24,000 nucleotides of DNA from Vogesella mureinivorans (GTDB lineage Bacteria; Pseudomonadota; Gammaproteobacteria; Burkholderiales; Chromobacteriaceae), in assembly GCF_007644035.1 (NCBI RefSeq), contig NZ_VMTV02000134.1, forward strand, positions 297,548-321,547. Direction: 5' to 3'. The first letter of the stretch is position 1, and every line of letters starts with the position of its first letter. Of the stretch, positions 150 through 22,399 are shown piece by piece. Below the pieces are notes generated by a model. It worked only from the letters and a program-made list of their open reading frames with translations, did not search any database and was not told where the DNA came from. A program made the position numbers and the translations under genes.

Positions 150-1065
150 TCGCCGCCTGCCTACCCAAGGGCAGGAACGCTGCGCCGCGTACGCCGCCGG
201 CGTCGCCGTGGCGGGCTTTTTCGATGCGCGGCACGCGGGCAAATTTCAGCATATAGCGCGGCAGGCGCTTGGGCAGCTCGCGGTATAGCTCGTCAAAGTT
301 GGATAGCCCGCCGCCCAGCACCACCAGCGCCGGGTCCAGTATGGCCAGGTAGCCGGCAAAGCAGCAGGCGGTCAGCTCGAAGAACTGCTCCACAAACACC
401 ACCGTCGCCGGGTGGCCCTCACGGTAGCGCTGGATGATGTCCTGTGCGGCCAACCTTTCGCTGAAACGGTGAAAAAACAGCTGCTCGAAGCCGCGGCCGG
501 ACAGGTAGTTGTCTATGCAGCCACGTTGGCCGCAGCCGCAGGAAAACACCGGCAAGTCGCCACCAAAAGCCTGTAGCGCATCGATAGGCAGGCGCATGTG
601 GCCCAGCTCGCCGGCCACGTGGTTCAGGCCGTTGTGGATCTGGCCGCGAAAAATCATGCCGGCACCCACGCCGGTACCCAGGATCACGCCCAGCACCGAG
701 GCCAGATGCTGGTTGGCCGCATCCATGGCTTCGGACAGTGCAAAGCAGTTGGCGTCGTTATCGATATACACCGGGCGGCCCAGGCGTTCTTGCAGGTCTT
801 CCTGCAGGCGGCGGCCATTGGCCGCGGGTACGTTGGCCGTCAGCAGGCTGCCGCTGATGCTGTCGATAATGCCGGGGATCCCCAGCCCCACGCTGCCCTG
901 GCAGCCAAGCTCACTGTCGGCCTGCCGCACGGTATGGCACAGCTCGTCCAGCAGGGTGGCGTAATCTTTGGGGGTAGCAAAGCGGTGCTGGCGTACGCGG
1001 CTGAGCGTGCCGTCGAAGGCGCCGAACGCGATTTTGGTACCACCGATGTCAAATCCGTAAAGCAT
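136..1065 (-). CDS. nagK: N-acetyl-D-glucosamine kinase (ROK family)
   Basis: 309-aa ORF. The N-terminus MLYGFDIGGTKIAFGAF is a ROK ATP-binding motif. It also has DNDANCFALSEA, GTGVGAG, the zinc motif GELGHMRLP...CGCGQRGCIDNYLSGRG, and the C-terminal VPRIEKARHGDAGGVRGAAFL. By my recollection of the E. coli NagK sequence the two are collinear along the whole length. It sits in a GlcNAc-utilisation context. Confidence 0.9.
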   Translation of the reverse strand: MLYGFDIGGTKIAFGAFDGTLSRVRQHRFATPKDYATLLDELCHTVRQADSELGCQGSVGLGIPGIIDSISGSLLTANVPAANGRRLQEDLQERLGRPVYIDNDANCFALSEAMDAANQHLASVLGVILGTGVGAGMIFRGQIHNGLNHVAGELGHMRLPIDALQAFGGDLPVFSCGCGQRGCIDNYLSGRGFEQLFFHRFSERLAAQDIIQRYREGHPATVVFVEQFFELTACCFAGYLAILDPALVVLGGGLSNFDELYRELPKRLPRYMLKFARVPRIEKARHGDAGGVRGAAFLPLGRQAATNAV

Positions 1066-1251
1066 GGTGAAGTCAGTCTTGGCTAGGAGGCCTGGCGTGC
1101 CTGCGGTTGGTGTCCGGGGTGCCGGGCAAAGTAATGGCGAAGCAAAAAAGTGCCGTTGCCGGTATATCTGCGCAAGGCGCTACAGGCAACGGCCAAGCTC
1201 TGCATGACCTCTCCAGAGGTTGGCAAGGCAGGATTCTACCTTACCCGCCCT

Positions 1252-1273
1252 GAAAACCGGGCTTGCGCCCGGG
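1252..1273 (-). terminator. Rho-independent terminator downstream of the porin gene
   Basis: On the minus strand: CCGGGC-GCAA-GCCCGG (1257-1262 / 1267-1272) followed by TTTTC. It lies 20 nt after the porin stop codon. Confidence 0.6.
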
Positions 1274-1292
1274 TACTACCAATCGGTCTGGT

Positions 1293-2424: not shown

Positions 2425-3510
2425 TTAAAACGTGTGTTCTGTGCGGCGTATGGCCTGGCCGTCCGGGCCAAACAAATGACACTGCGCGGTATCAATGGCC
2501 AGCCAGGCGCGGCTGCCGCTAGCCGGGGCCGTGCTGTCACTGCCCAGCTTCACGGCCAGTGGTTCGCTTTGGCCGGCGGCACGGGCGTACACGATCTGCA
2601 CATCGCCCAGGTGCTCTACCAGCTCTACCGTCACCGGTACGCCGTGCTCGGCAAAGCGCAGGTGCTCGGCGCGAATGCCCAGCGTCAGCTCGCCTTCGGC
2701 GCGGGCGCCCGGCAGGGTGAGCAGCTCGCCGCCTGGCAGCCGGATGCTGGTGCTGTGGCCAAAAATGCTGGCGCTTACCGGCAGGAAGTTCATCTTGGGG
2801 CTGCCCAGAAAGCCCGCCACAAACAGGTTGGCCGGGTGCTGGTACAGCGCCAGCGGCGTGCCGACCTGCTCGATGCGGCCAGCGTTGAACACGGCGATGC
2901 GGTCGCCCATGGTCATGGCTTCTACCTGGTCGTGCGTCACGTAGATCATGGTGCTGCCCAGGTCCTGGTGCAGGCGGGTCAGCTCGATGCGCATCTGTAC
3001 GCGCAGCGCGGCGTCCAGGTTGGAGAGCGGTTCGTCAAACAGGAATACATCGGGTTTGCGCACAATGGCGCGGCCAATGGCTACGCGCTGGCGCTGGCCG
3101 CCGGATAGCGCCTTGGGTTTGCGCTCCAGCAGGTGGCCGATTTGCAGGATGTCGGACGCGCGGGTGACGGCCTCGTTGATTTCCTGCTTGCTTTTGCCGG
3201 CCAGCTTCAGGCCGAAAGCCATGTTTTCGCGCACGGTCATGTGCGGGTACAGCGCGTAGCTCTGGAACACCATGGCCACGCCGCGTTTGGCTGGCGGCAC
3301 GTCGTTGGCCAGCGTGTCGCCTATCCACACTTCGCCCGCGCTGATGTCTTCCAGGCCGGCAATCATGCGCATCATGGTGGACTTGCCACAGCCGGACGGG
3401 CCGACAAACACCATGAATTCGCCATCGCGGATATCCAGATCCACGCCGTGAATCACGGTGGGGCCTTCGTCGTAGGTTTTCTTGATTTGCTTCAGTTTCA
3501 GTTCAGCCAT
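2425..3510 (-). CDS. ABC sugar-transporter ATP-binding protein (MalK/UgpC/MsiK type)
   Basis: Walker A GPSGCGKST, Q-loop, ABC signature LSGGQRQRVAIGRA, Walker B VFLFDEPLSNLDA, H-loop YVTHDQ, plus a MalK-like C-terminal regulatory domain. I start it at MAELKLKQIKK (ATG at 3510). The track ORF extends to 3672, but that 54-codon Arg/Pro-rich extension overlaps the upstream GH3 gene and looks non-coding. Confidence 0.93.
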   Translation of the reverse strand: MAELKLKQIKKTYDEGPTVIHGVDLDIRDGEFMVFVGPSGCGKSTMMRMIAGLEDISAGEVWIGDTLANDVPPAKRGVAMVFQSYALYPHMTVRENMAFGLKLAGKSKQEINEAVTRASDILQIGHLLERKPKALSGGQRQRVAIGRAIVRKPDVFLFDEPLSNLDAALRVQMRIELTRLHQDLGSTMIYVTHDQVEAMTMGDRIAVFNAGRIEQVGTPLALYQHPANLFVAGFLGSPKMNFLPVSASIFGHSTSIRLPGGELLTLPGARAEGELTLGIRAEHLRFAEHGVPVTVELVEHLGDVQIVYARAAGQSEPLAVKLGSDSTAPASGSRAWLAIDTAQCHLFGPDGQAIRRTEHTF

Positions 3511-3530
3511 GTTCTTTTCCTTGGTGCGGC

Positions 3531-5015
3531 TCAGGCCAGGCGGGCCGGCATGCGGCCGGTGGCGTCCAGCGTGCCCAGCAGCCAGTCGGCTACCGCGTGC
3601 AGGGCAGCGTCGGCAAAACCGTAGGTCAGCAGGGCGGGGGCGTTCAGGTCGGCGGCGGCGTAGGGGTTCCACAGCGCCAGGTGCAGGTCGGGCTGCCAGC
3701 TGGCGGCCTCGCGCGCGCCGTAGCGTTCGCGGGTAGTCGATGCCAGTACGGTGTAGCGGCCATCCTGCGGCAGCGTGGCCCAGTCCAGCGCCTGGCGGCT
3801 GGCAAAGGTCACCACGTCCAGGTCGAAGTGCTGGCGCAGCACGCCAATCAGCGTGTCGGCCGACAGCCCGGCCTCGGAGACACCGTCGGACGGTGCCTGC
3901 TGCTGCAGGACCAGGCGCAGCTGGCGCGATGTTGGCCGCAGCGGCTGGCCGTGGGCGGTGAGCGCGCGGCGCCAGGCGCTGGCAAACAGCGCCACGTCGG
4001 CGGCTTCTTGTGCCGGGCTGTAGCTGCGGGTGCGGCTGGGGTGGCGTGCTACCAGGGCGTTAACGCGCTGCTCGGCCTCGGCCAGGCGCGCCGTGCCCAG
4101 GCTGCCGTCGTGTACGGCGTCTACTACTGCCTGGCGGCTGGCGGCCATTTCATCGACAAACTGCAGCACCAGCGACAGGTCGGCGCCAGCGCGCAGCGCC
4201 TGCGCGGTACCGGCGGCCTGGCCCCAGCGTTCGCGGATGGCTTTCATGTTCATGCCGTCGGTAATGGCCACGCCCTGGTAGCCCCATTGCTGGCGCAGCA
4301 GGGTGCCCAGGATGGCGGGCGACAGCGTGGCGGGCCAGGCGTCGTCCAGCTGCGGAAACAGGATGTGCGCGCTCATCAGCGAGGCGCTGTGCGGCAGCAG
4401 GGCGCGGAACGGCGCCAGCTCGTAGTCGTCCAGCGCGGCGCGGCTTTTGTCTACCACCGGCAGGTCCAGGTGCGAGTCGGTGTGGGTGTCGCCGTGGCCG
4501 GGGAAGTGCTTCACGCAGCAGGCAATGTTTTCCTGCTGGTGGCCGCGCATCCACGCTGCGGCCAACCTCACCGCGCTTTCCGGGTGCTCGCCAAAGCTGC
4601 GCTCGCCAATCACCGGGTTTTGCGGGTTGTTGTTCAGGTCCAGCACCGGGCCGTAGTTCAGGTTGATGCCCAGCGAGGCCAGGCCACGCGCCAGCGCCGC
4701 GCCCACGTCGTGCGCCAGCGCCTCGTCGCCCACTGCGCCCAGCGCCATGGCCGACGGTGCTTGCGGCAGGAACAGCGTGCGCATCACGGCGCCGCCTTCC
4801 TGATCAATGCCGATCAGCACGTCGTCGCCGCAGGCTTCGCGCAGCTGCTGTACCAGCGCACGGGTTTGGGCGGCATCCTGCACATTGCGGCGGAACAGGC
4901 AGATGGCGCGGATATGGTTATCGCGCAGAAAGGTTTTTTCGGTGTCGCTCAGCGTGGTGCCGGCCACATCTACCATCAGGGCACGGCCGGCCAGGCGGTT
5001 CAGGTCTTGGCTCAT
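3531..5015 (-). CDS. Glycoside hydrolase family 3 beta-N-acetylhexosaminidase (NagZ-like catalytic domain with a C-terminal extension)
   Basis: 494 aa with no signal peptide. GH3 N-terminal domain motifs are present: GIDQEGG, NLNYGPVLDL, and KHFPGHGDTHTDSHLDLP (the NagZ-type D-H catalytic region). Its start overlaps the upstream permease stop (ATGA at 5012-5015), indicating translational coupling. Confidence 0.88.
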   Translation of the reverse strand: MSQDLNRLAGRALMVDVAGTTLSDTEKTFLRDNHIRAICLFRRNVQDAAQTRALVQQLREACGDDVLIGIDQEGGAVMRTLFLPQAPSAMALGAVGDEALAHDVGAALARGLASLGINLNYGPVLDLNNNPQNPVIGERSFGEHPESAVRLAAAWMRGHQQENIACCVKHFPGHGDTHTDSHLDLPVVDKSRAALDDYELAPFRALLPHSASLMSAHILFPQLDDAWPATLSPAILGTLLRQQWGYQGVAITDGMNMKAIRERWGQAAGTAQALRAGADLSLVLQFVDEMAASRQAVVDAVHDGSLGTARLAEAEQRVNALVARHPSRTRSYSPAQEAADVALFASAWRRALTAHGQPLRPTSRQLRLVLQQQAPSDGVSEAGLSADTLIGVLRQHFDLDVVTFASRQALDWATLPQDGRYTVLASTTRERYGAREAASWQPDLHLALWNPYAAADLNAPALLTYGFADAALHAVADWLLGTLDATGRMPARLA

Positions 5016-5890
5016 TTCACTGCTCCGTCAAAGCCGCGCAGGAAGTAGCGCTGGGTAAACAGAAACACCATCAGGATGGGCAGCACGGTCAGCACCGCAC
5101 CGGCGGCCACCACGCGAATCTTGAAACTGAAGGCACCAGACAGGTACAGCACGCCCACCGACAGCGGGAATTTGTCCGGGCTGGCCATCACGATGGACGG
5201 CCAGATGTACTGGTTCCACGCCGCCACCAGGGTCAGGATGGTGAGGGCGGCCAGCGCCGGGCGCGCCAGCGGCAGCATGATGTGCCAGAAGATTTGCCAC
5301 TCGGTGGCGCCGTCTACGCGGGCGGCGTCTACCAGGTCGTTTGGCACTGCCTCAAAGGCTTGCTTCATCAGGAAAATGCCCACCGCGCCCGCCAGGCCCG
5401 GCAGCACCACGCCGGTATAGGTGTCACCCATGCCCAGCTTGGACACGGTGATGAAGTTCACCAGGAAGTTCACCTCCGACGGCAGGATCATGGTGGCCAG
5501 AATGGCGCCAAACACGATATTGCGGCCGGGGAACTGCATGCGCGCCAGCGGGTAGGCCGCCATGCTGCACACAACCAGCGTACCGGCCACGGTGAGTACC
5601 GAAATGATGATGGAGTTCTTGTAGAACGCGATCACATCAATGGTCTGGAACACCTCCACAAAGTTGTCCAGGCCCGGGTTTTCCGGCCACATGCGCGGTG
5701 GGTAGGTAAACACATCGCCGCTGGTAGACAGTGCCGTCACCAGCGTCCACCAGAACGGGTACACGGTAATCACCGCCAGCAGGGTCAGCACCAGGTAGTG
5801 CAGCGTGCGGTTGGCCAGCTTGTTCATATTGATTTTCTTTGCCGTGGCAGCCCGCGGCATGGGCAGGGTTTTTTCCATGGCTTGCCTCAT
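5012..5890 (-). CDS. Carbohydrate ABC transporter permease (MalG/BPD_transp_1 type)
   Basis: 292 aa with about 6 hydrophobic segments. It has the EAA-type loop (DAARVDGATEWQIFWHIMLPLARPAL). ATGA overlaps occur at both ends (5887-5890 and 5012-5015). Confidence 0.88.
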   Translation of the reverse strand: MRQAMEKTLPMPRAATAKKINMNKLANRTLHYLVLTLLAVITVYPFWWTLVTALSTSGDVFTYPPRMWPENPGLDNFVEVFQTIDVIAFYKNSIIISVLTVAGTLVVCSMAAYPLARMQFPGRNIVFGAILATMILPSEVNFLVNFITVSKLGMGDTYTGVVLPGLAGAVGIFLMKQAFEAVPNDLVDAARVDGATEWQIFWHIMLPLARPALAALTILTLVAAWNQYIWPSIVMASPDKFPLSVGVLYLSGAFSFKIRVVAAGAVLTVLPILMVFLFTQRYFLRGFDGAVK

Positions 5891-6753
5891 TTCTTGCGCG
5901 GTTGCAGGTAGCGGAAGTTCAGCCAGGCCAGCGCCACGCAGAACACCGACATCACCAGGCTGGCAGCCAGTGCCCGGCCAAAGTTCAGCGACTTGATACC
6001 GAACTCGTAGGCGTAGAACAGTGCCGTATAGGTAGACTGCATCGGGCCACCCTTGGTCATGATCTGCACCTCCTCAAAGCACTTCACTGCGGCCAACATG
6101 GACATCACCGAGCACAGCAGGATGGTGGGCATCAGCAGCGGCACGGTAATTTTCCAGAAGCGCTGCCAGGCATTGGCACCGTCCAGCACCGCCGCTTCGT
6201 ACACGTCTTGCGGCACGCTCTGCAGGCCGGCCAGGTACAGCACCATGTACCAGCCCAGGCCGCGCCAGATGGTGACAAACATCACCGAAAACAGCGCAAT
6301 GCGGTCGTCGCTGAGCCAGCCTATGGGCTCGTTGATCACGTGCAGCCAGCGCAGCACCGCATTCAGCGCGCCGTCGTCGGTGTACATGAAGTTCCAGATC
6401 ACCCCGATGACCGACACCGTGGTGACCACCGGCAGGTAGTACGCCGCGCGGTAAAACTTGATACCCGGCAGCTGGTTGTTCACCAGCACCGCCAGCAAAA
6501 GGGCTAGCACCTGGATGGCAGGCACCACCAGCAGGTACAGCGCCGAGTTTTTCAGCGCGCTGATAAACAGTTCGTCGGCGAACAGCTCGCGAAAGTTATC
6601 CAGACCCACCCACACCGGGGCGTCGATCAGGTTGTATTGCGTAAACGCCAGGTAAGAGCCAAAGCCCACCGGCCAAAACGAAAACGCCATTAACAGCAGC
6701 AGTGCCGGGCCAAGAAACAGCCAGGCCTGCAGCGTATTTTTTCTGGAAGTCAT
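5887..6753 (-). CDS. Carbohydrate ABC transporter permease (MalF type)
   Basis: Multi-pass membrane protein with the EAA loop (YEAAVLDGANAWQRFWKITVPLLMP). I chose the start at MTSRKNTLQAWLFLGPALLLL (ATG at 6753). The track start at 6834 is a GTG buried in an intergenic hairpin. Confidence 0.88.
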   Translation of the reverse strand: MTSRKNTLQAWLFLGPALLLLMAFSFWPVGFGSYLAFTQYNLIDAPVWVGLDNFRELFADELFISALKNSALYLLVVPAIQVLALLLAVLVNNQLPGIKFYRAAYYLPVVTTVSVIGVIWNFMYTDDGALNAVLRWLHVINEPIGWLSDDRIALFSVMFVTIWRGLGWYMVLYLAGLQSVPQDVYEAAVLDGANAWQRFWKITVPLLMPTILLCSVMSMLAAVKCFEEVQIMTKGGPMQSTYTALFYAYEFGIKSLNFGRALAASLVMSVFCVALAWLNFRYLQPRKK

Positions 6754-6789
6754 ACTCACCGCACTTTGCAAACGTGATCCATAGCCCCC

Positions 6790-6814
6790 TTGGCCGCAGG
6801 CAAAGCCCGGCCAA
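6790..6814. repeat. Inverted pair of the window-wide TTGGCCG motif forming a hairpin
   Basis: TTGGCCG (6790-6796) and CGGCCAA (6808-6814) with an 11-nt loop, in the binding-protein/permease intergenic gap. Confidence 0.6.
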
Positions 6815-6842
6815 CCCTGCCTGCGCCGGGGCACAGGCAGGG
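6815..6842 (-). promoter_or_regulatory. Intercistronic GC-rich stem-loop (candidate mRNA stabiliser or partial terminator after the binding-protein gene)
   Basis: Perfect 9-bp stem CCCTGCCTG (6815-6823) / CAGGCAGGG (6834-6842) with a 10-nt loop and no U-tract. It lies in the 139-nt gap between the solute-binding-protein gene and the first permease gene. Confidence 0.45.
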
Positions 6843-6892
6843 CGGGTGTGAAGTGCCGTTACCGGGGTAACAGCCAGGCAATCACACGCGAA

Positions 6893-8146
6893 TTACAGTT
6901 TGCTGTTCCAGAAAGCCACGGCTTCATCCAGTGCCGCTTTCGGGTCTTTGCGGCCGGTGACGGCTTGCTCTACTGCGGCTGCCAGCTTGTTCGACAGCAC
7001 TTCCGGGTCTTTCACGCCAGACAGGAAAATGGTGCGGGTGCTATCCAGGCTGGAGGCCGCTACCGCTACCGCCTGCTCTACCGCGCCGCCCGGGGCCGCT
7101 ACGGTCTGGAAGTGCGGGTCTTTGGCCGCCTTGCCGCTGGTAGGCAGGGTGCCGGCCAGCTTGGAGAACGCCAGCTGGTTGGCGTCGTTAGTCAGGTAGT
7201 TGGCAAACTTGCCCACCTCCGGCAGCAGTGCCTTGTCCACGTTCTTTGCCACGGCAAAGTTGAACATCCAGCCGCCGGACGCAATGCCGGTCGGGCCTAC
7301 CGGGGCGGCCGCTACGGCAGTGGCCTTGTACAGCACCGGTGCTTCGTCACGGATACGGGTCAGCGAGGTAGGGGTGGAAACCAGCATGGCCATCTTGCCG
7401 GCGTTGTAAGCCTGCATCTGCACCTGGAAGTTATCCTGGGCAAACAGGTTGTCTTTCAGCAGCGCGCCAGCCTTGTAGGCATCGGCCAGCTTTTTCATCA
7501 TCGCCACGTGTGCCGGGCTGTTGAATACCGCCTTGCCGCCTTTCACCACGTCCAGGCCGTTCTGGATAAAGAAGCCTTCAATCTTGGTGGGGCCCAGCGT
7601 CGGGGCAAAGCCTGCTACACCGGTTTTAGCCTTGATGGCCTTGGAGAACGACAGCTGCTCGTCAAACGTCTTTGGCGCAGCCTTCAGGCCGGCGCGGGCA
7701 AAGATGTCTTTGTTGTAGGCAATCACGTTGGCGCCGTTGTAGTGCGGGAAGGCGTAGGTCTTGCCTTCAAAGGTCACGTCAGCCAGCGCGCCTTTCACAA
7801 ACTGTGTCTTGTTGATGATGGCGTCCACCGGCTGGATCAGGCCATCCTGCTTGTAGTCATACGCCCAGGGCACGTTCAGGTTCACCAGTGCCGGCGGTTT
7901 GCCGGCGCCTACCGCGGCAGTGAACTTGGCCTGAATCACATCCCACGGGTAGTCCGTCCACTTCACCTCTACGCCAGGGTTCTGCGCGTTGTACTTGCCC
8001 ACCAGGTCTTTGAAGTAGCCGTCGAATTTGGGCGACAGGCTCATGGTCCACACCTCGATCACCGGTTTGTCGGCGGCCAGGGCGCTAAAAGAGGTAGTCA
8101 GGCCAACGGCCAGCAGCGTGGCGCTGGCGATAGATTTCAGTTTCAT
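6893..8146 (-). CDS. ABC transporter extracellular solute-binding protein (family 1, sugar/chitooligosaccharide type)
   Basis: Signal peptide MKLKSIASATLLAVGLTTSFSALA-ADKP, starting at ATG 8146. The track start at 8200 adds 18 unlikely residues. Length is about 417 aa. It is the first gene of the permease/ATPase operon and has typical SBP_bac_1 composition (W/Y/K-rich, GKxxA motifs). Confidence 0.88.
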   Translation of the reverse strand: MKLKSIASATLLAVGLTTSFSALAADKPVIEVWTMSLSPKFDGYFKDLVGKYNAQNPGVEVKWTDYPWDVIQAKFTAAVGAGKPPALVNLNVPWAYDYKQDGLIQPVDAIINKTQFVKGALADVTFEGKTYAFPHYNGANVIAYNKDIFARAGLKAAPKTFDEQLSFSKAIKAKTGVAGFAPTLGPTKIEGFFIQNGLDVVKGGKAVFNSPAHVAMMKKLADAYKAGALLKDNLFAQDNFQVQMQAYNAGKMAMLVSTPTSLTRIRDEAPVLYKATAVAAAPVGPTGIASGGWMFNFAVAKNVDKALLPEVGKFANYLTNDANQLAFSKLAGTLPTSGKAAKDPHFQTVAAPGGAVEQAVAVAASSLDSTRTIFLSGVKDPEVLSNKLAAAVEQAVTGRKDPKAALDEAVAFWNSKL

Positions 8147-8293
8147 GCTCGGACTCTCGTTCGGGTTGTGTTGTGGTGGCGGCCGGCCTGCGTGTGTCAC
8201 GGCTGGCGTTCCTTTGGCAGCATTCGGCTACCGGTCTCTTGTTGGCAGCCACACTGGGCGGTTCTTGTATGGCCTTGGTGTGTCTGCCATTTC

Positions 8294-8322
8294 AATCTAA
8301 TACCAGAAAAATACCAGAGCAA
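8294..8322 (-). promoter_or_regulatory. Candidate sigma-70 promoter of the chitooligosaccharide operon
   Basis: On the minus strand: TTGCTC (8322-8317), a 17-nt spacer, then TAGATT (8299-8294). The spacer and flanks are occupied by the TGGTATT repeats. This would give a leader of about 140 nt beginning with an 11-bp imperfect hairpin (8244-8254 / 8278-8288). Confidence 0.35.
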
Positions 8323-8328
8323 TACCAA
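8299..8328 (-). promoter_or_regulatory. Three tandem TGGTATT operator repeats (NagQ/GntR-type GlcNAc regulator site, by recollection of published comparative genomics)
   Basis: The minus strand reads TGGTATT-gctc-TGGTATT-tttc-TGGTATT. These are three perfect heptamers with exactly 11-bp periodicity, at plus-strand 8299, 8310 and 8321. They overlap the predicted promoter. Confidence 0.55.
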
Positions 8329-8387
8329 TGTAAAACCTTTGTTAAATGTTGCAGTGCAGCTACATCAAAAATGCAACAAAACGGCAC

Positions 8388-8401
8388 TGGTATCGATACC
8401 A
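8388..8401. promoter_or_regulatory. Perfect 14-bp palindrome built from the same half-site (TGGTAT-CG-ATACCA)
   Basis: TGGTATCGATACCA at 8388-8401, about 60 bp upstream of the tandem repeats relative to the operon. It uses the same hexamer as the TGGTATT repeats in an inverted arrangement. Confidence 0.45.
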
Positions 8402-13334: not shown

Positions 13335-13349
13335 ATTGCCGTGGCAGGC

Positions 13350-14079: not shown

Positions 14080-15846
14080 ATGCAGATATCGGGCGCGGAG
14101 ATCCTGGTTCGCAGCTTGCAGGAAGAAGGAGTCGAATTCGTTTTCGGCTACCCCGGCGGCGCGGTCCTTGAGATATATGATGCTATTTTCCGGCAGCAGC
14201 AGTTCAAACACGTACTGGTGCGCCACGAACAGGCGGCTGTGCACGCGGCCGACGCGTACTCGCGTTCCAGCAACAAGGTAGGTGTCGCCCTGGTGACATC
14301 CGGCCCTGGCGCGACCAATGCCGTAACCGGCATTGCCACGGCGTACATGGATTCCATCCCCATGGTGGTGATTTCGGGCCAGGTGTCCACACCGGCCATC
14401 GGCATGGATGCTTTCCAGGAAGTGGACATGGTGGGCATTACCCGCCCGTGCGTGAAGCACAACTTCCTGGTGAAAGACATTAACGAGCTGGCTGCCACCA
14501 TCAAGAAGGCGTTCTACATTGCCGCCTCCGGCCGCCCCGGCCCGGTGGTAGTAGACATCCCGAAAGACGTGACCCAGCGCCTGGCCGAGTTCCACTACCC
14601 GGAAAGCGTGAGCATCCGCTCCTACGTGCCGGTAACGCGTGGCCACCCTGGCCAGATCAAAAAGGCCGTGAACCTGCTGGCCGAAGCCAAGCGCCCGTAC
14701 ATTTACGTGGGCGGCGGTGCGGTGCAGGGCAATGCCTCGGCCGAAGTCACCGAGCTGGTGAAAATGCTGGGTGTGCCATGTACCAACACCCTGATGGGCC
14801 TGGGCGCCTATCCGGGACAGGATCAGCAGTTCCTGGGCATGCTGGGCATGCACGGCACCTACGAAGCCAATATGGCCATGCAGTACTGTGATGTGCTGAT
14901 TGCCGTGGGCGCGCGTTTTGACGACCGCGTGATCAGCGTGCCGTCGCACTTCCTGTCGCAGCCGAAAAAGATTGTGCACATCGACGTAGACCCGTCCTCC
15001 ATCGCCAAACGCGTGAAGGTAGACGTGCCTATCGTGGGCGATGTGAAACACGTGCTGCGCGACATGATCGACCTGCTCAAGCAAACCGGCCAGCAAGTGC
15101 CACCGCAAAACCTGGCCAACTGGTGGAAGCAGATCGAAGAATGGCGCAGCTACAACAGCCTGCTGTACACCCCGTCTAACGAGTTCATCAAGCCGCAGTA
15201 CGTGGTGCAGAAGCTGTACGAAATTACCGGCGGCGATGCCATCATCACCTCCGACGTGGGCCAGCACCAGATGTGGGCCGCGCAGTACTACCCGTTCAAG
15301 CGCCCGAAACAGTGGCTGAACTCCGGTGGCCTGGGCACCATGGGCTTTGGCTTGCCCGCCGCCATTGGCGCGCAGCTGGCCAACCCGGATGCACAAGTAG
15401 CGTGCATTACCGGTGAAGGCTCCATCCAGATGAATATCCAGGAGCTGTCCACCGCCAAGCAGTACCACACCCCGGTGAAGGTGATTGCGCTGAACAACCG
15501 CTACCTGGGCATGGTGCGCCAGTGGCAGGAGTTCTTCTACGGCACCCGCTATTCCGAGTCTTACATGGATGCGCTGCCGGACTTCGTGAAGATTGCCGAA
15601 GCCTACGGCCACGTGGGTATCAAGGTGGAAAACCCGGCTGACGTAGAGCCGGTGCTGCGCGAAGCGTTCAGCCCGGCGCTGAAAGAGCGCCTGGTATTCC
15701 TGGATTTCCGTACCGACCAGTCCGAAAACGTGTTCCCGATGATCCAGAACGGCAAAGGTCTGGACCAGATGGATCTGCCGCCGCACATGCGCGACCTGCA
15801 GATTGCCCCGTTCGAGAACAACCGTGACTACGGCAACATGTGTTAA
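14080..15846 (+). CDS. ilvI: Acetolactate synthase (acetohydroxyacid synthase) large subunit, biosynthetic type
   Basis: 588 aa. MQISGAEILVRSLQEEGVEFVFGYPGGAVLEIYDA. The ThDP-binding region is GLGTMGFGLPAAIGAQ...ITGEGSIQMNIQEL. It is followed directly by the small subunit gene. Confidence 0.96.
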   Translation: MQISGAEILVRSLQEEGVEFVFGYPGGAVLEIYDAIFRQQQFKHVLVRHEQAAVHAADAYSRSSNKVGVALVTSGPGATNAVTGIATAYMDSIPMVVISGQVSTPAIGMDAFQEVDMVGITRPCVKHNFLVKDINELAATIKKAFYIAASGRPGPVVVDIPKDVTQRLAEFHYPESVSIRSYVPVTRGHPGQIKKAVNLLAEAKRPYIYVGGGAVQGNASAEVTELVKMLGVPCTNTLMGLGAYPGQDQQFLGMLGMHGTYEANMAMQYCDVLIAVGARFDDRVISVPSHFLSQPKKIVHIDVDPSSIAKRVKVDVPIVGDVKHVLRDMIDLLKQTGQQVPPQNLANWWKQIEEWRSYNSLLYTPSNEFIKPQYVVQKLYEITGGDAIITSDVGQHQMWAAQYYPFKRPKQWLNSGGLGTMGFGLPAAIGAQLANPDAQVACITGEGSIQMNIQELSTAKQYHTPVKVIALNNRYLGMVRQWQEFFYGTRYSESYMDALPDFVKIAEAYGHVGIKVENPADVEPVLREAFSPALKERLVFLDFRTDQSENVFPMIQNGKGLDQMDLPPHMRDLQIAPFENNRDYGNMC

Positions 15847-15857
15847 GGCCTAGCAGC

Positions 15858-16349
15858 ATGCGACATATTCTTTCTATTTTGCTGGAAAACGAAGCGGGCG
15901 CCCTGTCACGAGTAGTGGGACTTTTTTCCGCGCGCGCATACAATATCGATTCGCTGACCGTGTCGACTACCGAAGACCCGACACTGTCGCGCATGACTAT
16001 CGTGACCCACGGGTCCGACGAAGTCATCGAGCAGATCACCAAGCAGCTCAACAAGCTGATCGAGGTGGTCAAGGTGATTGACCTCAACGAGTCCGACCAT
16101 ATCGAACGCGAGATGATGCTGATCAAGGTCCGTGCCAATGGCAAGGACCGTGAAGAAATGAAGCGCATGGCTGATATCTTCCGCGGCCGCATCATCGACG
16201 TGACGGAAAAGACCTACACCATCGAGCTCACTGGTACCAGCGACAAGCTCAACGCCTTTATCGAGGCGATCGACCGTTCAGTGATCCTGGAAACGGTGCG
16301 TACCGGTGCATCCGGAATTGGTCGCGGCGAACGTATTCTGAAGATCTGA
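15858..16349 (+). CDS. ilvH: Acetolactate synthase small (regulatory) subunit
   Basis: 163 aa from MRHILSILLENEAGALSRVVGLFSARAYNIDSLTV (ACT domain) plus an ALS_ss_C-like C-terminus. ATG is at 15858; the track GTG start at 15840 overlaps the ilvI stop. Confidence 0.93.
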   Translation: MRHILSILLENEAGALSRVVGLFSARAYNIDSLTVSTTEDPTLSRMTIVTHGSDEVIEQITKQLNKLIEVVKVIDLNESDHIEREMMLIKVRANGKDREEMKRMADIFRGRIIDVTEKTYTIELTGTSDKLNAFIEAIDRSVILETVRTGASGIGRGERILKI

Positions 16350-16388
16350 TATCACCAGGGCGGCTACCCGCTGCCCGAGAACAACTAG

Positions 16389-17414
<1,026 letters not shown>

Positions 17415-17436
17415 GCCTTGCGGCATTGTTCTGACA

Positions 17437-17461
17437 AACCGGGCCCTGTGCCCGGTTTTTT
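17437..17461 (+). terminator. Rho-independent terminator after ilvC
   Basis: CCGGGC (17439-17444), loop cctgt, GCCCGG (17450-17455), then TTTTTT (17456-17461). Confidence 0.75.
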
Positions 17462-17480
17462 CATGCGTGGCCGCCGTGGC

Positions 17481-17510
17481 TTGGGGCTGGCCGCTAAAGC
17501 GCCGTACAAT
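17481..17510 (+). promoter_or_regulatory. Possible promoter for pssA
   Basis: TTGGGG (17481-17486), an 18-nt spacer, then TACAAT (17505-17510), 55 nt upstream of the pssA ATG. The -35 element is weak. Confidence 0.3.
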
Positions 17511-17564
17511 GTCTGATTCTTGGCCTGTGCGGCCAACCTACTGTTTATTTGTGACGGGAAGCCC

Positions 17565-18323
17565 ATGCATCACGATCCTGTACCTGCCAAACCCTCGCTG
17601 CGCCGCCAGGGCATTTACCTGCTACCCAACTCGTTTACCCTGGCCGCGCTGTTTGCCGGCTTTTACGCCATCGTGCAGGCGATGAACCAGCGTTTCGAGC
17701 TGGCGGCCGTGGCCATTTTCATTGCCATGATTCTGGACGGCATGGATGGCCGCGTGGCGCGCATGACGCACAGCCAGAGTGCCTTCGGGGCCGAGTTCGA
17801 TAGCCTGTCGGATATGGTGAGTTTTGGCGTGGCACCGGCGCTGGTGGCCTACGAGTGGCTGCTGAAAGACCTGGGCAAGCTGGGCTGGATGGTGGCTTTT
17901 ATCTACTGTGCCGGTGCGGCGCTGCGCCTGGCGCGTTTCAATACCATGGTCGGCACGGCGGATAAGCGCTGGTTTACCGGCCTGCCCAGCCCGGCGGCGG
18001 CGGCGCTGGTGGCGGGGCTGGTGTGGATTTGCCACGCCTACGGTTACCAGCAGCTGCCCGGCCTGCACTGGCTGGCGCTGGCCTTTACTGCCTTTGCCGG
18101 TATCACCATGGTGACCAATGTGAAGTACTGGAGCTTCAAGGAAATCCACCTGCGCCGCCGCGTGCCTTTCGTGATGCTGCTGGGCTTGGTGGTGGTGTTG
18201 CTGCTGCTGATGTCGGAGCCGCCACTGGTGCTGTTCGGCTTCTTTGTCTGCTACGCGCTGTCGGGTTACGTCATGGCATTGCTGGGCCTGGTGCGCAAAT
18301 CGCCACCGCCGGCAGCCAGCTAA
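17565..18323 (+). CDS. pssA: CDP-diacylglycerol--serine O-phosphatidyltransferase (CDP-alcohol phosphatidyltransferase family)
   Basis: 252 aa from MHHDPVPAKPSLRRQGIYLLPNSFT. Family motif DGMDGRVAR...G.EFDSLSD. Multiple TM segments. ATG is at 17565; the track start at 17520 is upstream and unsupported. Confidence 0.9.
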   Translation: MHHDPVPAKPSLRRQGIYLLPNSFTLAALFAGFYAIVQAMNQRFELAAVAIFIAMILDGMDGRVARMTHSQSAFGAEFDSLSDMVSFGVAPALVAYEWLLKDLGKLGWMVAFIYCAGAALRLARFNTMVGTADKRWFTGLPSPAAAALVAGLVWICHAYGYQQLPGLHWLALAFTAFAGITMVTNVKYWSFKEIHLRRRVPFVMLLGLVVVLLLLMSEPPLVLFGFFVCYALSGYVMALLGLVRKSPPPAAS

Positions 18324-18343
18324 GCCGCTTGGCCTCAGTACAC

Positions 18344-18366
18344 AAACCGCCTTCGGGCGGTTTTTT
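18344..18366. terminator. Rho-independent terminator between convergent pssA and the AraC gene, with the same 23-nt core as the one at 13311-13333
   Basis: AAACCGCC-TTCG-GGCGG-TTTTTT. It is identical over 23 nt to the SLT/RDD terminator. Confidence 0.75.
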
Positions 18367-18376
18367 CATGGTGTGG

Positions 18377-19261
18377 CTAACGCAGGCAGGCGCTGGGCGG
18401 CTGGCCGAAGCGGCGGCGGAAGGCGGTGGCAAAGTTGGCCGCAGAGCTGTAGCCCGCCCCCAGTGCCACATCGGTAATGCGGTGCTGCCCGCTTAGCAGT
18501 AGCTGGCGGGCACTTTCCAGCCGCTGCCCGCGCAGATAGTCCATCACGCTGCAGCTAAAGTGGCGGCGAAAGTGTCGTTGCAGGGTGCTGCTGCTCATGC
18601 ATGCGGCGTCGGCCAGCTGGTGCAGGCTCCAGTTTTCCCCCTCGCCACTGTCTATCAGGTCTTTTACCCGCTGCAGGTGGCGGTTCAGTTGCGGGGTAGC
18701 CGGGCTGTTGGCCGGGGTGTCGCCCAGTGCCTCCAGTACCTGGCCTAGCAGCAGCATGCCCATGCCCTCGCGCTCGATCTGCGTCAGCAGGGGGTTGGCC
18801 GCACGGTGTTGCACCATGTGCTGTGCTAGCTGGGTCAATGGCGCGCTGGCCGTCCATTGCCGTGCTGCCAGGTGGCCGCGCGCCAGGCGGGCTAGCGTGG
18901 ATTGCTTACCCGCTTCGGCCAGACCGTGGCGTTCCAGCCAGGGGTGGTCCAGTGCCATGCATACCTTCAGCTCGATACCAGGTTGGCCGCAGTGGCGCTG
19001 GAACAGCGCTTGTTCATTGAGGTTCACCAGTAGCACCTGGGCTTGATGCTGTGGTTGCAGGCGAAAGTCTTGCTGATCGAAGCGCAGCTGCAGCGGCCCC
19101 TGTAGTGCCACGATCAGCCGTAGCCCGGCGGCGCTGACATTGCTGTGGCTGTGCGGGTTGGCTCGGCTGCGGTTGGCGCTGATATGCAGACCCGGTGTGG
19201 TGTGCTGTACCCAGGCGACGTCGCCACCCATCCCCCTGCTACGTGCTGGCTGCCCCTGCAT
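18377..19261 (-). CDS. AraC-family transcriptional regulator (siderophore-responsive PchR/YbtA-like by context)
   Basis: The C-terminal double HTH is WSLHQLADAACMSSSTLQRHFRRHFSCSVMDYLRGQRLESARQLLLSGQHRITDVALGAGYSSAANFATAFRRRFGQPPSA. I start it at ATG 19261 (MQGQPARS...), preceded by AAGGAG at good spacing. The track start at 19285 is a TTG. It is divergent from the esterase/receptor genes. Confidence 0.85.
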   Translation of the reverse strand: MQGQPARSRGMGGDVAWVQHTTPGLHISANRSRANPHSHSNVSAAGLRLIVALQGPLQLRFDQQDFRLQPQHQAQVLLVNLNEQALFQRHCGQPGIELKVCMALDHPWLERHGLAEAGKQSTLARLARGHLAARQWTASAPLTQLAQHMVQHRAANPLLTQIEREGMGMLLLGQVLEALGDTPANSPATPQLNRHLQRVKDLIDSGEGENWSLHQLADAACMSSSTLQRHFRRHFSCSVMDYLRGQRLESARQLLLSGQHRITDVALGAGYSSAANFATAFRRRFGQPPSACLR

Positions 19262-19361
19262 GCTGCTTTCTCCTTGTTCCCTCAATGCCGCTGGCGCAAA
19301 CGCGCTTGCGCTTTACGCAAAAGCCCTGCCGCCGACAAAACCGGATACTAGCAGACTTCTT

Positions 19362-19380
19362 GATAATAAGAATAGTTATC
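19362..19380. promoter_or_regulatory. Fur box
   Basis: GATAATAAGAATAGTTATC matches the 19-bp consensus GATAATGATAATCATTATC at 15/19 positions by my own alignment. It lies 20 nt upstream of the esterase start, in the divergent AraC/esterase intergenic region. Confidence 0.75.
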
Positions 19381-19399
19381 AACAAGTGAGGTGGTAACC

Positions 19400-20329
19400 A
19401 TGTGTATCCGATCCCGTCTGGCGGGTTGGCTGGGCGCGGCCTGGCTGCTGCTGGCCATGCTGCCGGCACTGGCCTCGCCCGTCGTGCTGGAAGGCGCCAG
19501 CCAGTTTGAGCTGCACTCACGGCATACCGGCCGCGACTACCGCATCTATCTGTCGGTACCCGCCGTACCGCCACCAGCTGGGGGCTACCCGGTGCTGTAC
19601 GCGCTGGATGGTGACGCCAGCTTTGCCCGCCTGCACCAGGCCAACCCGCGCGAGGCCAGTGTATTGGCGCGCCTGCGCCAGCACGGGCCCGTGGTGCCGC
19701 TGCCTGGCGTGGTGGTGGGCATAGGTTATGGCTGCCCGTTTAGCCAGACGATGGATTGGCGCGCCGAAGATTACACCCCGCCACTGTCGTGCCAGGCTTG
19801 CGAGCTGTCTTCGCCGCGCCACGGTGGGGCCGACGCCTTTGCCCGTTTCATCAATGAAGAGCTCAAGCCGGAAATCGCCCGCCGCCTGCCAGTGAACACG
19901 GCGCGCCAGAGCCTGTTCGGCCATTCCTATGGTGGCCTGTTTACCGTGTACCAGCTGCTGCAACAGCCGCAGCACTTCCAGCATTACTTTGCCATCAGCC
20001 CGTCGCTATGGTTTGGCGACCGGGCCCTGTTGGCCGCGCCGCTGCCCGTGCTGCCGGCTACAGCGCCACGCTTGCTGGTGCTGTGGGTAGGGCAAGACGA
20101 GCAGCCGGCCAGCTACGACCTGGCGGTTGACCGCCAACGGCAGCAGCGCCTGCAGCAAAACCGCATGGTGAGTAATACCGCCGAGCTACAGGCCCGCTTA
20201 TACGGCCTGCCTGGCCTGGTAAGTGATTACCGTGTCGTGCCCGGCCATGACCACGGCCAGATGCATGGCTACGCCATCGACCGTGTACTGGCTATTGCCT
20301 TTAGCCCGGCCTGGCAGCCAGCCCACTGA
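19400..20329 (+). CDS. Secreted alpha/beta-hydrolase, siderophore esterase (IroE/Fes/BesA-like putative esterase family)
   Basis: 309 aa from ATG 19400 (SD GAGGTGG). Signal peptide MCIRSRLAGWLGAAWLLLAMLPALA. Motifs YPVLYALDGD and the nucleophile elbow FGHSYGGLF, with a C-terminal HDH region. It is paired with a TonB-dependent receptor and a Fur box. Confidence 0.8.
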   Translation: MCIRSRLAGWLGAAWLLLAMLPALASPVVLEGASQFELHSRHTGRDYRIYLSVPAVPPPAGGYPVLYALDGDASFARLHQANPREASVLARLRQHGPVVPLPGVVVGIGYGCPFSQTMDWRAEDYTPPLSCQACELSSPRHGGADAFARFINEELKPEIARRLPVNTARQSLFGHSYGGLFTVYQLLQQPQHFQHYFAISPSLWFGDRALLAAPLPVLPATAPRLLVLWVGQDEQPASYDLAVDRQRQQRLQQNRMVSNTAELQARLYGLPGLVSDYRVVPGHDHGQMHGYAIDRVLAIAFSPAWQPAH

Positions 20330-20377
20330 TTTCATGTGATGGGGTGGCCTGTCACCCCGCTTATTTCGGGAATAAAA

Positions 20378-22399
20378 ATGAAGCAACGCAAACATTCCAG
20401 GGCCCGCTTTGCGGCCAACCCGCTGTACGCCATCCTGTTTGGCAGTGCCATGCTGCTGCCGGCCCATACCGCCCTGGCAGCGGAGACCCTGCTGGACAAG
20501 GTGACGGTGACCGGTGAAAAAATGAACCGTAGCCTGGCCAAGACCACCACCGCCGTGAGTGTGCTGCAGGGTGAGCGGGTGGATAGCGGCGAGATCAGCT
20601 CGGTGAACGAGGTGGCGGCCATGGTGCCCAATATGACCCTGAATGCCGTTGGTGGCGTCAACATCCGTGGCGTAGAAGGCGCCGGGCCGGGCGTGGGCTT
20701 TTATTCTTTTGTTGGCGGTGGCCGCCCGCGCATCAGCACCAGCCTGGATGGCGTGGCTGACGTGTGGACCGGCCAGCAATACCTGGACAGCGATGTGTGG
20801 GACGTAAAGCAGGTAGAAGTGCTGCGCGGGCCGCAGTCCACCACCCAGGGCCGTAACGCGCTGGGCGGCGCGGTGCTGGTGCAGACCAATGACCCCACCT
20901 TCCACCAGGAAGGCGCGCTGCGGCTGGGCTGGGAAGACACCGATGGCCGTGCCAACGTGGCCGGCATGTTGTCTGGTGCGCTGGTAGCAGACGAGCTGGC
21001 CTACCGCCTTACCGCCAATGCCTTGAAAGGGCATGGTTTCATCAACTACAGCGGCGCTACCGGCGGGCAGGACCCCTCCGCGCTGCAGCGTAGCAATGTG
21101 CGCGGCAAGCTGCTGTGGAAGCCCAAGTCTTTGCCGCAGCTGCAGGCGCGCTTGACGGTAGCGCACCGCGACTACCAGGGCGAGTACCTGAACCTGATCA
21201 CCGGCCCCGACCTGGGCGCCTATACCTACAAGGCCAGCGCTGCGGCCAACGCCCGCATCCAGGACTCGCAGAACACTACCACCACGCTGGACACCGAGTA
21301 CGACTTCCAGAACGGCGTTACCGGCCACCTGCAGTACAGCTACAGCGACAACCACATCGGCTTCGAGCAATACCCCAGCCGCATGAGCCTGGCACTGGAC
21401 GACCAGAACCACACGCTGGAAGGCCGCCTGGTATACCAGCGCCCGCAGAGCGCCCTGAGCGGTGTGCTGGGCGTGTATGCCTACCAGCGTGATCAGGACC
21501 TGCATGCCTTTACCGCCACCACCACTACCTTCAAGGGCAATGACAAGGTCACCACGTTGGCCGCCTACACCGACGGCGAGCTGGCGCTGAACGACAGCTG
21601 GTCGCTGCTGGCCGGCCTGCGCGCCGAGCGCGAAACGCAACACCGCGATATCCGCTATAACGGCTCGCCGATCAAGGGTGACATTGGCAAGACCACGCTG
21701 CTACCCAAGCTGGGTATTAGCCACCAGTGGTCGCCGGCCACGCAGATGAGCTTTACCGTGCGCCAGGGCTACAACCCGGGTGGGGTGTCGGTAGACGAAA
21801 ACAACGCGGTATTCGAGTACGGCAGCGAGAAGGTCAATGCCTACGAATACGCGCTGAAAACCCGCCAGGGTGGCGTGCTCATAGGGGCCAACCTGTTTTA
21901 CAACGACTACACCGACTACCAGATGAGCTACGCCAGCCGCCTGCGCAATGTGCCGCAAGCGCATTCGCTGGGGCTGGAGCTGAGCGCCGCCGCCAGCATC
22001 ATTGGCGGGCTGGAAATCAACGCCGGCCTGGGCCTGCTGCGCAGCAAGGTAGACAAGGCGCCCGCAGGGGCGGCCGGCATTGCCGGCAAGGAGATGACCT
22101 ACGCCCCGGCTATCACGGCGACGCTGGGCGTGAAAAAGCAGTGGGGTAGCTGGACCGCTGCGGCCAACCTGCAGCACGTGGGCGAGTACTACACCGACAC
22201 CGCCAATACCAGCACCACCATGGGCGGCGACTACAACCTCCTTAATCTCAACCTGGCCTACGCTGTCAACGACGACACCACGCTGCGTACCTACGTGAAG
22301 AACGCGCTGAACGAGGCTGTCGTGCTGGGCAAGCGCACCACCGGCTTTTATGTGGGTGCACCGCGCACCGTGGGCATGAACGTGGACTACCGCTTCTAG
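20378..22399 (+). CDS. TonB-dependent siderophore receptor
   Basis: 673 aa from MKQRKHSRARFAANPLYAILFGSAMLLPAHTALA-AETLLDKVTVTGEK (signal peptide plus TonB-box/plug region). Plug motifs are present (VEVLRGPQSTTQGRNALGGAVLVQT). A long beta-barrel ends in ...GMNVDYRF with a terminal aromatic residue. Confidence 0.92.
   Translation: MKQRKHSRARFAANPLYAILFGSAMLLPAHTALAAETLLDKVTVTGEKMNRSLAKTTTAVSVLQGERVDSGEISSVNEVAAMVPNMTLNAVGGVNIRGVEGAGPGVGFYSFVGGGRPRISTSLDGVADVWTGQQYLDSDVWDVKQVEVLRGPQSTTQGRNALGGAVLVQTNDPTFHQEGALRLGWEDTDGRANVAGMLSGALVADELAYRLTANALKGHGFINYSGATGGQDPSALQRSNVRGKLLWKPKSLPQLQARLTVAHRDYQGEYLNLITGPDLGAYTYKASAAANARIQDSQNTTTTLDTEYDFQNGVTGHLQYSYSDNHIGFEQYPSRMSLALDDQNHTLEGRLVYQRPQSALSGVLGVYAYQRDQDLHAFTATTTTFKGNDKVTTLAAYTDGELALNDSWSLLAGLRAERETQHRDIRYNGSPIKGDIGKTTLLPKLGISHQWSPATQMSFTVRQGYNPGGVSVDENNAVFEYGSEKVNAYEYALKTRQGGVLIGANLFYNDYTDYQMSYASRLRNVPQAHSLGLELSAAASIIGGLEINAGLGLLRSKVDKAPAGAAGIAGKEMTYAPAITATLGVKKQWGSWTAAANLQHVGEYYTDTANTSTTMGGDYNLLNLNLAYAVNDDTTLRTYVKNALNEAVVLGKRTTGFYVGAPRTVGMNVDYRF

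Follow-up and report, generated by a model that had tools for sequence, protein, structure and literature searches.

An abundant, orientation-independent DNA word with lineage dialects in Vogesella and related Chromobacteriaceae: a candidate DNA uptake sequence

Known uptake sequences and a recurrent word in Vogesella

Sequence-biased DNA uptake has, to our knowledge, been established in two families only, both of host-associated bacteria: the Neisseriaceae, with their DNA uptake sequences (DUS), and the Pasteurellaceae, with their uptake signal sequences (USS). DUS in Neisseria and USS in Haemophilus occur roughly once per kb. Here, we analyse the 10-mer GTTGGCCGCA (hereafter the word), which recurs throughout a 24,000-nucleotide stretch of the Vogesella mureinivorans genome (contig NZ_VMTV02000134.1, positions 297,548 to 321,547; hereafter the window), and we propose that it probably serves as a DNA uptake sequence in the manner of DUS and USS, kept by uptake-biased recombination. 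V. mureinivorans belongs to the Chromobacteriaceae, order Neisseriales, a family in which no uptake sequence has so far been described.

The DUS of the Neisseriaceae, from the same order, resemble the word in many respects. They are non-palindromic sequences of 10–14 nt that occur about once per kb and equally on both strands, lie mostly within genes in preferred reading frames and more densely between genes, form inverted pairs at terminators, exist as genus-level dialects built on a conserved core, and are well conserved among strains. The AT-DUS is ATGCCGTCTGAA, and the receptor of DUS is the minor pilin ComP (PF16732). The Vitreoscilla massiliensis dialect AGCGGCCTGTAA has the motif GCGGCC in common with the reverse complement of the word, TGCGGCCAACC; unlike in DUS, the variable part of the word is its 3' dinucleotide. 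The USS of the Pasteurellaceae (AAGTGCGGT / ACAAGCGGT), for which we know of no receptor, also share with the word their density, strand symmetry, genic frame bias, terminator inverted pairs, two or more lineage-specific types, and a core accompanied by a weaker flank preference. They differ from it in belonging to another bacterial class, in their unrelated sequence and in their AT-rich flanking segments, and membership of the word in this group was rejected, as it bears no resemblance to AAGTGCGGT or ACAAGCGGT with AT-rich flanks. The Chromobacteriaceae, which are free-living, environmental bacteria, fall outside the DUS-bearing clade in Frye et al. 2013 (PMC3630211), and a 2025 preprint covering all Neisseriales genomes reports dialects from the Neisseriaceae only.

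Abundance, placement and codon context within the window

The window encodes a GlcNAc (N-acetylglucosamine)/chitobiose utilisation cluster (nagK, a porin, ABC transporter genes and a GH3 gene), a strain-variable island with a KAP NTPase gene, proS, an SLT gene, an RDD gene, ilvIHC, pssA, a module consisting of an AraC regulator, an esterase and a TonB-dependent receptor, and then leuA. An initial annotation, made from the sequence letters alone, had counted 29 copies of the 8-mer TTGGCCGC in it, 15 on the plus and 14 on the minus strand. This count and split were reproduced exactly, as were the individual coordinates except for a typographical error (7132, correctly 7122). Dinucleotide-preserving shuffles yield 3.26 ± 1.66 copies with a maximum of 9. 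The 11-mer GGTTGGCCGCA is present 11 times, precisely at the positions previously given for it, versus a shuffle mean of 0.05, and the 16-mer CCTGTGCGGCCAACCT, reported as common to two sites, is found at 441–456 and 17524–17539. In a k-mer survey of the window, the sharpest unit was the 10-mer GTTGGCCGCA, with 18 perfect copies (nine per strand) and 10 one-mismatch copies, the perfect copies corresponding to a density of 0.75 per kb (18 in 24 kb), or approximately one per 1.3 kb. Across Vogesella copies, positions 1–9 of the 10-mer are strict and position 10 is the loosest, and a weaker 5' extension, c-A-A-G, gives the extended form cAAG-GTTGGCCGC-A. The word thus measures 10–14 bases overall and can also be written, with both strands, as GTTGGCCGCA / TGCGGCCAAC.

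Thirteen of the 18 perfect copies lie in genes and five in the non-coding 9.4% of the window, so that intergenic DNA carries about four times the coding density. The 13 coding copies are read in four frames (L-A-A, A-A-N, C-G-Q and L-R-P-T), most of them as A-A-N or L-A-A. Copies on the sense strand use codons that are infrequent in the window, where AGG accounts for 6% of Arg, TTG for 7% of Leu and GCA for 11% of Ala codons; Arg-Leu-Ala-Ala is indeed encoded as AGG TTG GCC GCA in nagK, the GH3 gene and the KAP gene, as had been pointed out together with the apparent rarity of AGG and TTG. The preference for two peptides could in principle mean that the word arises by chance or follows from the amino-acid and codon composition of a G+C-rich genome, through Ala-Ala-Asn and Leu-Ala-Ala. 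We evaluated this with a codon-aware null, a check already called for by the initial annotation, in which synonymous codons were shuffled within each gene while proteins and per-gene codon usage were kept (2000 shuffles). Under this null, coding DNA contained 0.44 copies of the 10-mer (maximum 4 in 2000) compared with 13 observed, and 4.4 copies of the 8-mer compared with 22 observed. The enrichment therefore persists, at about 30-fold for the 10-mer, and while many copies do read A-A-N, as originally noted, coding bias does not account for the word. The intergenic density above that of coding DNA and the lack of the word in related genomes encoding the same peptides point in the same direction, leaving an origin in composition or chance a negligible probability.

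The perfect copies, their arrangements and related features in the window (coordinates, strand, description) are listed below.

445..454, minus strand: perfect 10-mer GTTGGCCGCA in nagK, sense; AGG TTG GCC GCA (R-L-A-A), rare codons
525..534, plus strand: perfect 10-mer in nagK, antisense; TGC GGC CAA C (C-G-Q)
712..721, plus strand: perfect 10-mer in nagK, antisense; GCG GCC AAC (A-A-N)
3931..3940, plus strand: perfect 10-mer in the GH3 gene, antisense; CTG CGG CCA ACA (L-R-P-T)
4557..4566, minus strand: perfect 10-mer in the GH3 gene, sense; AGG TTG GCC GCA (R-L-A-A)
6088..6097, minus strand: perfect 10-mer in an ABC permease gene, sense; ATG TTG GCC GCA (M-L-A-A)
8634..8668, plus strand: intergenic direct pair upstream of the KAP NTPase gene; GTTGGCCACA, 15-nt gap, GTTGGCCGCA
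8828..8837, plus strand: perfect 10-mer in the KAP NTPase gene, sense; AGG TTG GCC GCA (R-L-A-A)
10840..10862, unstranded: intergenic inverted pair directly 3' of the stop codon of a hypothetical gene; TTGGCCGC cccgtt GCGGCCAA(C)
13283..13292, plus strand: perfect 10-mer beginning on the last base of the SLT stop codon
13896..13905, minus strand: perfect 10-mer in the RDD–ilvI intergenic region; invariant in 7/7 aligned strains
17528..17537, minus strand: perfect 10-mer, intergenic between ilvC and pssA, within a hairpin at 17520..17537
18434..18443, plus strand: perfect 10-mer in the AraC-type regulator gene, antisense; A-A-N
18794..18803, plus strand: perfect 10-mer in the AraC-type regulator gene, antisense; A-A-N
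18982..18991, plus strand: perfect 10-mer in the AraC-type regulator gene, antisense; C-G-Q
20410..20419, minus strand: perfect 10-mer in the TonB-dependent receptor gene, antisense; A-A-N
21241..21250, minus strand: perfect 10-mer in the TonB-dependent receptor gene, antisense; A-A-N; GTTGGCCGCC in two related strains
22159..22168, minus strand: perfect 10-mer in the TonB-dependent receptor gene, antisense; A-A-N
2874..21565: ten one-mismatch copies, at 2874 (minus), 6789 (plus), 8634 (plus), 8956 (minus), 11616 (minus), 12734 (minus), 16676 (minus), 16901 (minus), 20029 (plus) and 21556 (plus)
8965..10839, unstranded: word-free stretch, G+C 43–50%, strain-variable; 3' part of the KAP NTPase gene and the hypothetical gene

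Six of the ten one-mismatch copies deviate at position 10 alone, and the sites at 6789, 8634, 11616, 16901 and 20029 are perfect in sister strains. The copy at 8634, GTTGGCCACA, has one mismatch in the window and is perfect in four related strains; its direct pair, 25 nt apart, is followed at 8673 by a partial inverted copy, the whole arrangement spanning 8634–8680. It belongs to the long intergenic region upstream of the KAP gene (8147–8733), where two near-copies of the TTGGCAGC type, at 8214 and 8242, form a further conserved pair; the word arrangement of this region is kept in five strains. The inverted pair at 10840–10862, whose right arm is a perfect 10-mer on the minus strand (10853–10862), folds into an 8-bp hairpin of -14.4 kcal/mol. 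The copy at 13283 has the SLT stop codon on one side and a canonical intrinsic terminator (about 13308–13334) on the other, and the hairpin at 17520–17537 (TTGGCC tgtgc GGCCAA, then a T-rich tail) scores as terminator-like.

Chromosomal spread, dialects and conservation

At syntenic loci of other Vogesella genomes, 86–99% identical to the window, the word occurs at 5–9.5 copies per 10 kb. It is also present, with 11 copies in 21.4 kb, at the DnaB locus of a V. mureinivorans-like 3.9-Mb circular contig, 2.3 Mb from the counterpart of the window. Metagenomes were scanned with inverted pairs of the word as the query, and Vogesella contigs were told from chance matches, among the 120 stretches returned, by at least two extra copies outside the seed. 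By this measure, 50 of the 120 (465 kb) passed, with 4.7 copies per 10 kb outside the seed, and the DnaB of the one contig checked was 100% identical to a Vogesella protein. About 60% of the matches were set aside as chance occurrences: they came from unrelated taxa, and up to 14 kb of their sequence held no additional copy. The occurrence at the unlinked DnaB locus and on 50 unlinked Vogesella metagenome contigs means that the word is not confined to one region, an outcome that the initial annotation had named as contrary to its proposal. As a negative control we used 80 loci around proS (1.5 Mb) from other betaproteobacteria of similar G+C, obtained by a ProS-anchored scan of GTDB genomes; the relatives among the matches listed were Burkholderiales and Rhodocyclales at 65–72% identity. 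These loci contained 10 copies (0.07 per 10 kb versus 7.5 per 10 kb in the window), a more than 100-fold lower frequency, and the pooled figures are 400 copies in 554 kb of Vogesella DNA versus 10 copies in 1.6 Mb of control DNA.

Over-representation along the whole chromosome is also what would be expected of Chi, of KOPS (FtsK-orienting polar sequences) or of another architecture-imparting polar signal. Such signals display a strong skew co-oriented with replication, which the word lacks: the strand imbalance within contigs sums to 69, compared with 69.4 ± 9.6 for a 50:50 binomial and 131 for a 75:25 skew, and the window has nine copies on each strand. Because the summed imbalance equals the 50:50 expectation, polar signals are excluded, in agreement with the earlier rejection of Chi/KOPS-type polarity, and we consider a polar role highly improbable.

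Comparison of ProS- or DnaB-anchored loci from other genera revealed lineage-specific forms of the word (lineage, form, copies).

Vogesella, four species: GTTGGCCGCA; 11–18 copies per ~21–24 kb locus
Strain JH1-16: GTTGGCCGAA; 13 copies per 21.7 kb
Crenobacter luteus and C. cavernae: GTTGGCCGAG; 14 and 8 copies per ~21 kb
Aquitalea (two loci), Chromobacterium violaceum, Craterilacuibacter and Paludibacterium: no word; 0 copies

These forms share the core GTTGGCCG and differ at their 3' ends, which are CA in Vogesella (CAAGGTTGGCCGCA, as set against the other two dialects), AA in Pseudogulbenkiania and JH1-16, and AG in Crenobacter. A literature search for the word itself returned chance primer matches only. 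The sole prior trace that we found is that of a sister dialect: the 10-mer with the highest over-representation in Lutiella nitroferrum 2002 and Pseudogulbenkiania sp. NH8B is GTTGGCCGAA, with 1104 and 1153 copies, respectively (Frye et al. 2013, PMC3630211, Table S1D). That 10-mer contains the same core GTTGGCCG, differs from the Vogesella word by one base and is identical to the AA form of JH1-16; it was reported as a supplementary-table count only, without anatomy, dialects, terminator pairing or codon analysis. The GTTGGCCGAA of Lutiella/Pseudogulbenkiania and the Vogesella word almost certainly constitute one system.

Orthologous codons show how the dialects are accommodated. The E-L-A-E peptide of ProS is encoded as GAG TTG GCC GAA in JH1-16, as GAG TTG GCC GAG in Crenobacter and as CTG GCC/GCG GAA elsewhere. 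Similarly, Kup reads TTT GCG GCC AAC (F-A-A-N) in V. facilis, and its F-S-A-N peptide is written TTT TCG GCC AAC in JH1-16, TTC TCG GCC AAC in Crenobacter and TTC AGC GCC AAC in the word-less Aquitalea. Because synonymous codons at orthologous sites follow the dialect of each lineage, these comparisons provide direct evidence that the DNA word rather than the protein is maintained, with a specificity that differs by lineage.

Inverted pairs of the word are few in the window and frequent in V. indigofera and in the metagenome contigs. In V. indigofera, four perfect pairs with folding energies of about -35 kcal/mol occur at gene 3' ends (AAAGGTTGGCCGCAA, loop, TTGCGGCCAACCTT and a T-run), and pairs in this position overall fold at -33 to -36 kcal/mol with A-run and T-run flanks. 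Nearly all Vogesella metagenome seeds have extended arms, short unrelated loops and A-run/T-run flanks, and Crenobacter builds an equivalent terminator arrangement from its own variant. Thus, intergenic inverted pairs forming terminator-like hairpins, a trait of DUS and USS, are found here as well. Perfect inverted pairs with short loops, frequent as they are in intergenic DNA, might alternatively represent a small mobile or palindromic extragenic element, such as a repetitive extragenic palindrome or bacterial interspersed mosaic element (REP/BIME) or a miniature inverted-repeat transposable element (MITE), with the pair as the unit and single words as decayed halves. Against this, 13 of the 18 window copies (72%) are single intragenic words, spread over four frames, that show neither a partner remnant nor any flank similarity, the word arises at orthologous codons by synonymous change and not by insertion, and the loops and flanks of different pairs are mutually unrelated. 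Flank information reaches background no more than 4 nt from the core and is about zero farther out, so that the copies do not form one dispersed repeat, another of the contrary outcomes raised by the initial annotation, and no part of the window matched an Rfam model at gathering score. Extragenic palindromic units with a conserved extended sequence were therefore not recognised, and an origin from such elements is very unlikely. In all, coding bias or chance, a dispersed repeat, REP/MITE elements and Chi/KOPS signals were rejected as sources of the word.

A scan of viral sequences with the inverted-repeat query gave four matches, two of which contain an operator-like cluster of TTGCGGCCAA(C). 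In one viral contig (L225, positions 8320–8480, with the identical arrangement in L223), an intergenic segment of 150 bp contains at least six copies of TTGCGGCCAA(C) / GTTGGCCGCA, whose mix of inverted and direct repeats resembles a repressor operator set. This cluster is probably an artefact of the inverted-repeat query and not evidence on the host word.

Among aligned strains, word positions diverge by 1.7% as opposed to 7.9% for random 10-nt windows (P about 0.002), i.e. the word is about 4.5 times better conserved. Its retention in related genomes, proposed earlier as a check, is thereby confirmed. Copies are gained and lost by point mutation, since sites that are perfect in one strain are one or two substitutions off elsewhere.

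A candidate uptake function, its alternatives and the surrounding genes

The traits of DUS and USS found for the word further include an abundance of about one per kb above compositional and codon-aware expectation, equal strand use and lineage-specific variants. We know of no sequences other than DUS and USS that combine a frequency of about one per kb, freedom of orientation, placement in genes with intergenic enrichment, frame bias, inverted pairs at terminators, conservation among strains, genus dialects and dispensability in sister genera. It is because this property set is shared only with Neisseriaceae DUS and Pasteurellaceae USS that we favour an uptake sequence. The initial proposal of a DNA word selected as such, possibly as an uptake signal, is accordingly supported, and none of the four contrary outcomes that could be sought in silico was observed; competence, biased uptake and a receptor in Vogesella are what we infer from these patterns. 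The terminator hairpins built from inverted pairs, the lineage dialects and the dialect-matched codon choice are further DUS/USS-like traits, beyond what the initial annotation was able to see. For the wider group, we give slightly better than even chances that a subset of the Chromobacteriaceae (Vogesella, Pseudogulbenkiania with JH1-16, and Crenobacter) possesses an uptake-sequence system of its own, based on the core GTTGGCCG, unrelated to CTG, with at least three genus dialects.

In the mechanism that we propose, a predicted surface receptor of the natural-transformation machinery, presumably associated with a type IV pilus, would bind double-stranded DNA bearing the word, so that conspecific DNA would be taken up and recombined ahead of foreign DNA. 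Biased uptake and recombination would then spread new copies and restore decayed ones, a form of molecular drive, and the word would build up to about one per kb wherever tolerated. In genes it would settle in frames that spell common peptides (Leu-Ala-Ala, Ala-Ala-Asn), and between genes it would take the form of inverted pairs doubling as transcription terminators. Drift of receptor specificity could have produced the different 3' ends on the GTTGGCCG core in sister genera.

Several observations weigh against an uptake sequence. All DUS dialects are defined by a CTG core (+6 to +8) and by an A at +10 of the 12-mer. The word has neither; a CTG is seen solely as a weak flank, in roughly half of the copies. 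The earlier remark that it matches no DUS dialect therefore holds and, because the defining core is absent, the word stands outside the Neisseriaceae DUS sequence family. The Pseudogulbenkiania 10-mer was not regarded as an obvious DUS by Frye et al. 2013 (PMC3630211). The literature searched contained no reports of natural transformation or biased uptake for Vogesella, Pseudogulbenkiania or Crenobacter. A tblastn search with ComP and a generic pilin found no pilin in the 2.6 Mb of retrieved loci. In a separate ComP search, with a query sequence checked against PDB 2M3K, 69 candidates were scored and 33 passed, all of them close Neisseria-type ComP (two carrying the Neisseria name) and none from Vogesella, at a sensitivity too low for a distant orthologue. 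Finally, identical signatures would result from any drive or selection on DNA that is strongly sequence-specific and independent of orientation.

Two alternatives of this last kind were considered. The word could be the target of another DNA-binding protein acting on both strands, such as a nucleoid-associated or chromosome-organising factor or an intracellular self/non-self mark, and be kept by selection. DNA-level selection, conservation, dialects and non-polarity fit any selected word recognised by a protein, and the literature search for competence, as mentioned, provided no evidence of it. The word is missing from the sister genera Aquitalea, Chromobacterium, Craterilacuibacter and Paludibacterium, so its function must be dispensable, as would be expected of an accessory uptake bias more than of a core chromosome function. 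Moreover, no chromosome-organising site known to us combines a frequency of about one per kb, a mostly genic and orientation-free placement, changes of dialect between genera and pairing at terminators. We regard an intracellular binding target as unlikely.

The second alternative takes the cyanobacterial HIP1 (GCGATCGC) as its model. HIP1 is palindromic and has been linked to a methyltransferase site; like the word, it occurs about once per kb, within and between genes, with lineage variants and an unproven function, and unlike it the word is asymmetric and 10–14 nt long. In a comparable manner, a methyltransferase or a very-short-patch (VSP)-type repair activity overlapping the GGCC / YGGCCR centre might enrich the word by correcting near-matches. 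GGCC and YGGCCR are classic methylase targets, and the core contains both GGCC and TGGCCG, a YGGCCR site. In addition, one-mismatch variants at positions 1–9 are no commoner than in controls, as if near-matches were converted. Specificity is nevertheless strict over 9–10 asymmetric bases plus a 4-nt flank, longer than the Type II or VSP specificities known to us, and repair of this type predicts neither terminator inverted pairs nor intergenic enrichment. We consider this explanation improbable, somewhat more so than an intracellular binding target.

If the word is an uptake sequence, these bacteria would join the Neisseriaceae and Pasteurellaceae as the third lineage known to carry one, and would be the first free-living, environmental lineage among them. 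Either uptake specificity would then predate the split between Neisseriaceae and Chromobacteriaceae, with later replacement of its target, or it would have originated independently with a new receptor. Such a third system would offer a natural experiment on receptor–target co-evolution, bearing on the questions of how sequence-biased uptake starts and how its target changes, in a setting of culturable freshwater bacteria from the sister family of the Neisseriaceae that includes three clean dialects, one core and word-less close relatives. Candidates for the receptor would be expected among the genes that Vogesella, Pseudogulbenkiania and Crenobacter have and that Aquitalea and Chromobacterium lack. 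These chitin-degrading bacteria would also be predicted to be naturally transformable, and hence useful for genetics. On the practical side, recently acquired islands could be recognised with the help of the word, a strong marker of taxonomy and of "native DNA" in these genomes.

Identity between strains over positions 10841–24000 of the window differs from one sister genome to another. One of them (L084) is 97–98.5% identical throughout; another (L083) is 96% identical over 10.8–17.5 kb and 87.6% over the adjacent 17.6–24 kb. Because of this mosaic identity, homologous recombination between Vogesella lineages is indicated to be frequent. The module of AraC regulator, esterase and TonB-dependent receptor (18377–22399) is present in the window and in the relatives L081, L083 and L086 and absent from L082 and L084, the latter having an EamA gene and another AraC gene between ilvC and pssA. 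Accessory though it is, this module holds six perfect copies of the word, which suggests circulation within Vogesella and not arrival from outside.

The strain-variable island at 8200–10831 (about 1700–4450 in the loci L081–L085), with a G+C content of 43–54%, lies between a sugar-binding-protein gene and proS. Its cargo is a KAP-family NTPase, accompanied in the window by a 248-aa hypothetical protein. The KAP gene ranges from 443 to 735 aa and has a different sequence in every strain examined; this variation suggests that the island is a hotspot for exchangeable, possibly defence-related, cargo. The word-free stretch at 8965–10839 is consistent with recently acquired DNA that has yet to gain the native word and is too short for significance.

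At the end of the window, the open frame leading into leuA begins with a segment (22588–22830) encoding about 75 N-terminal residues that resemble a small helix-turn-helix domain. Gene callers give LeuA a length of 596 aa in all relatives, and a typical LeuA is about 80 aa shorter; the long frame represents either a fusion or a separate small upstream gene.

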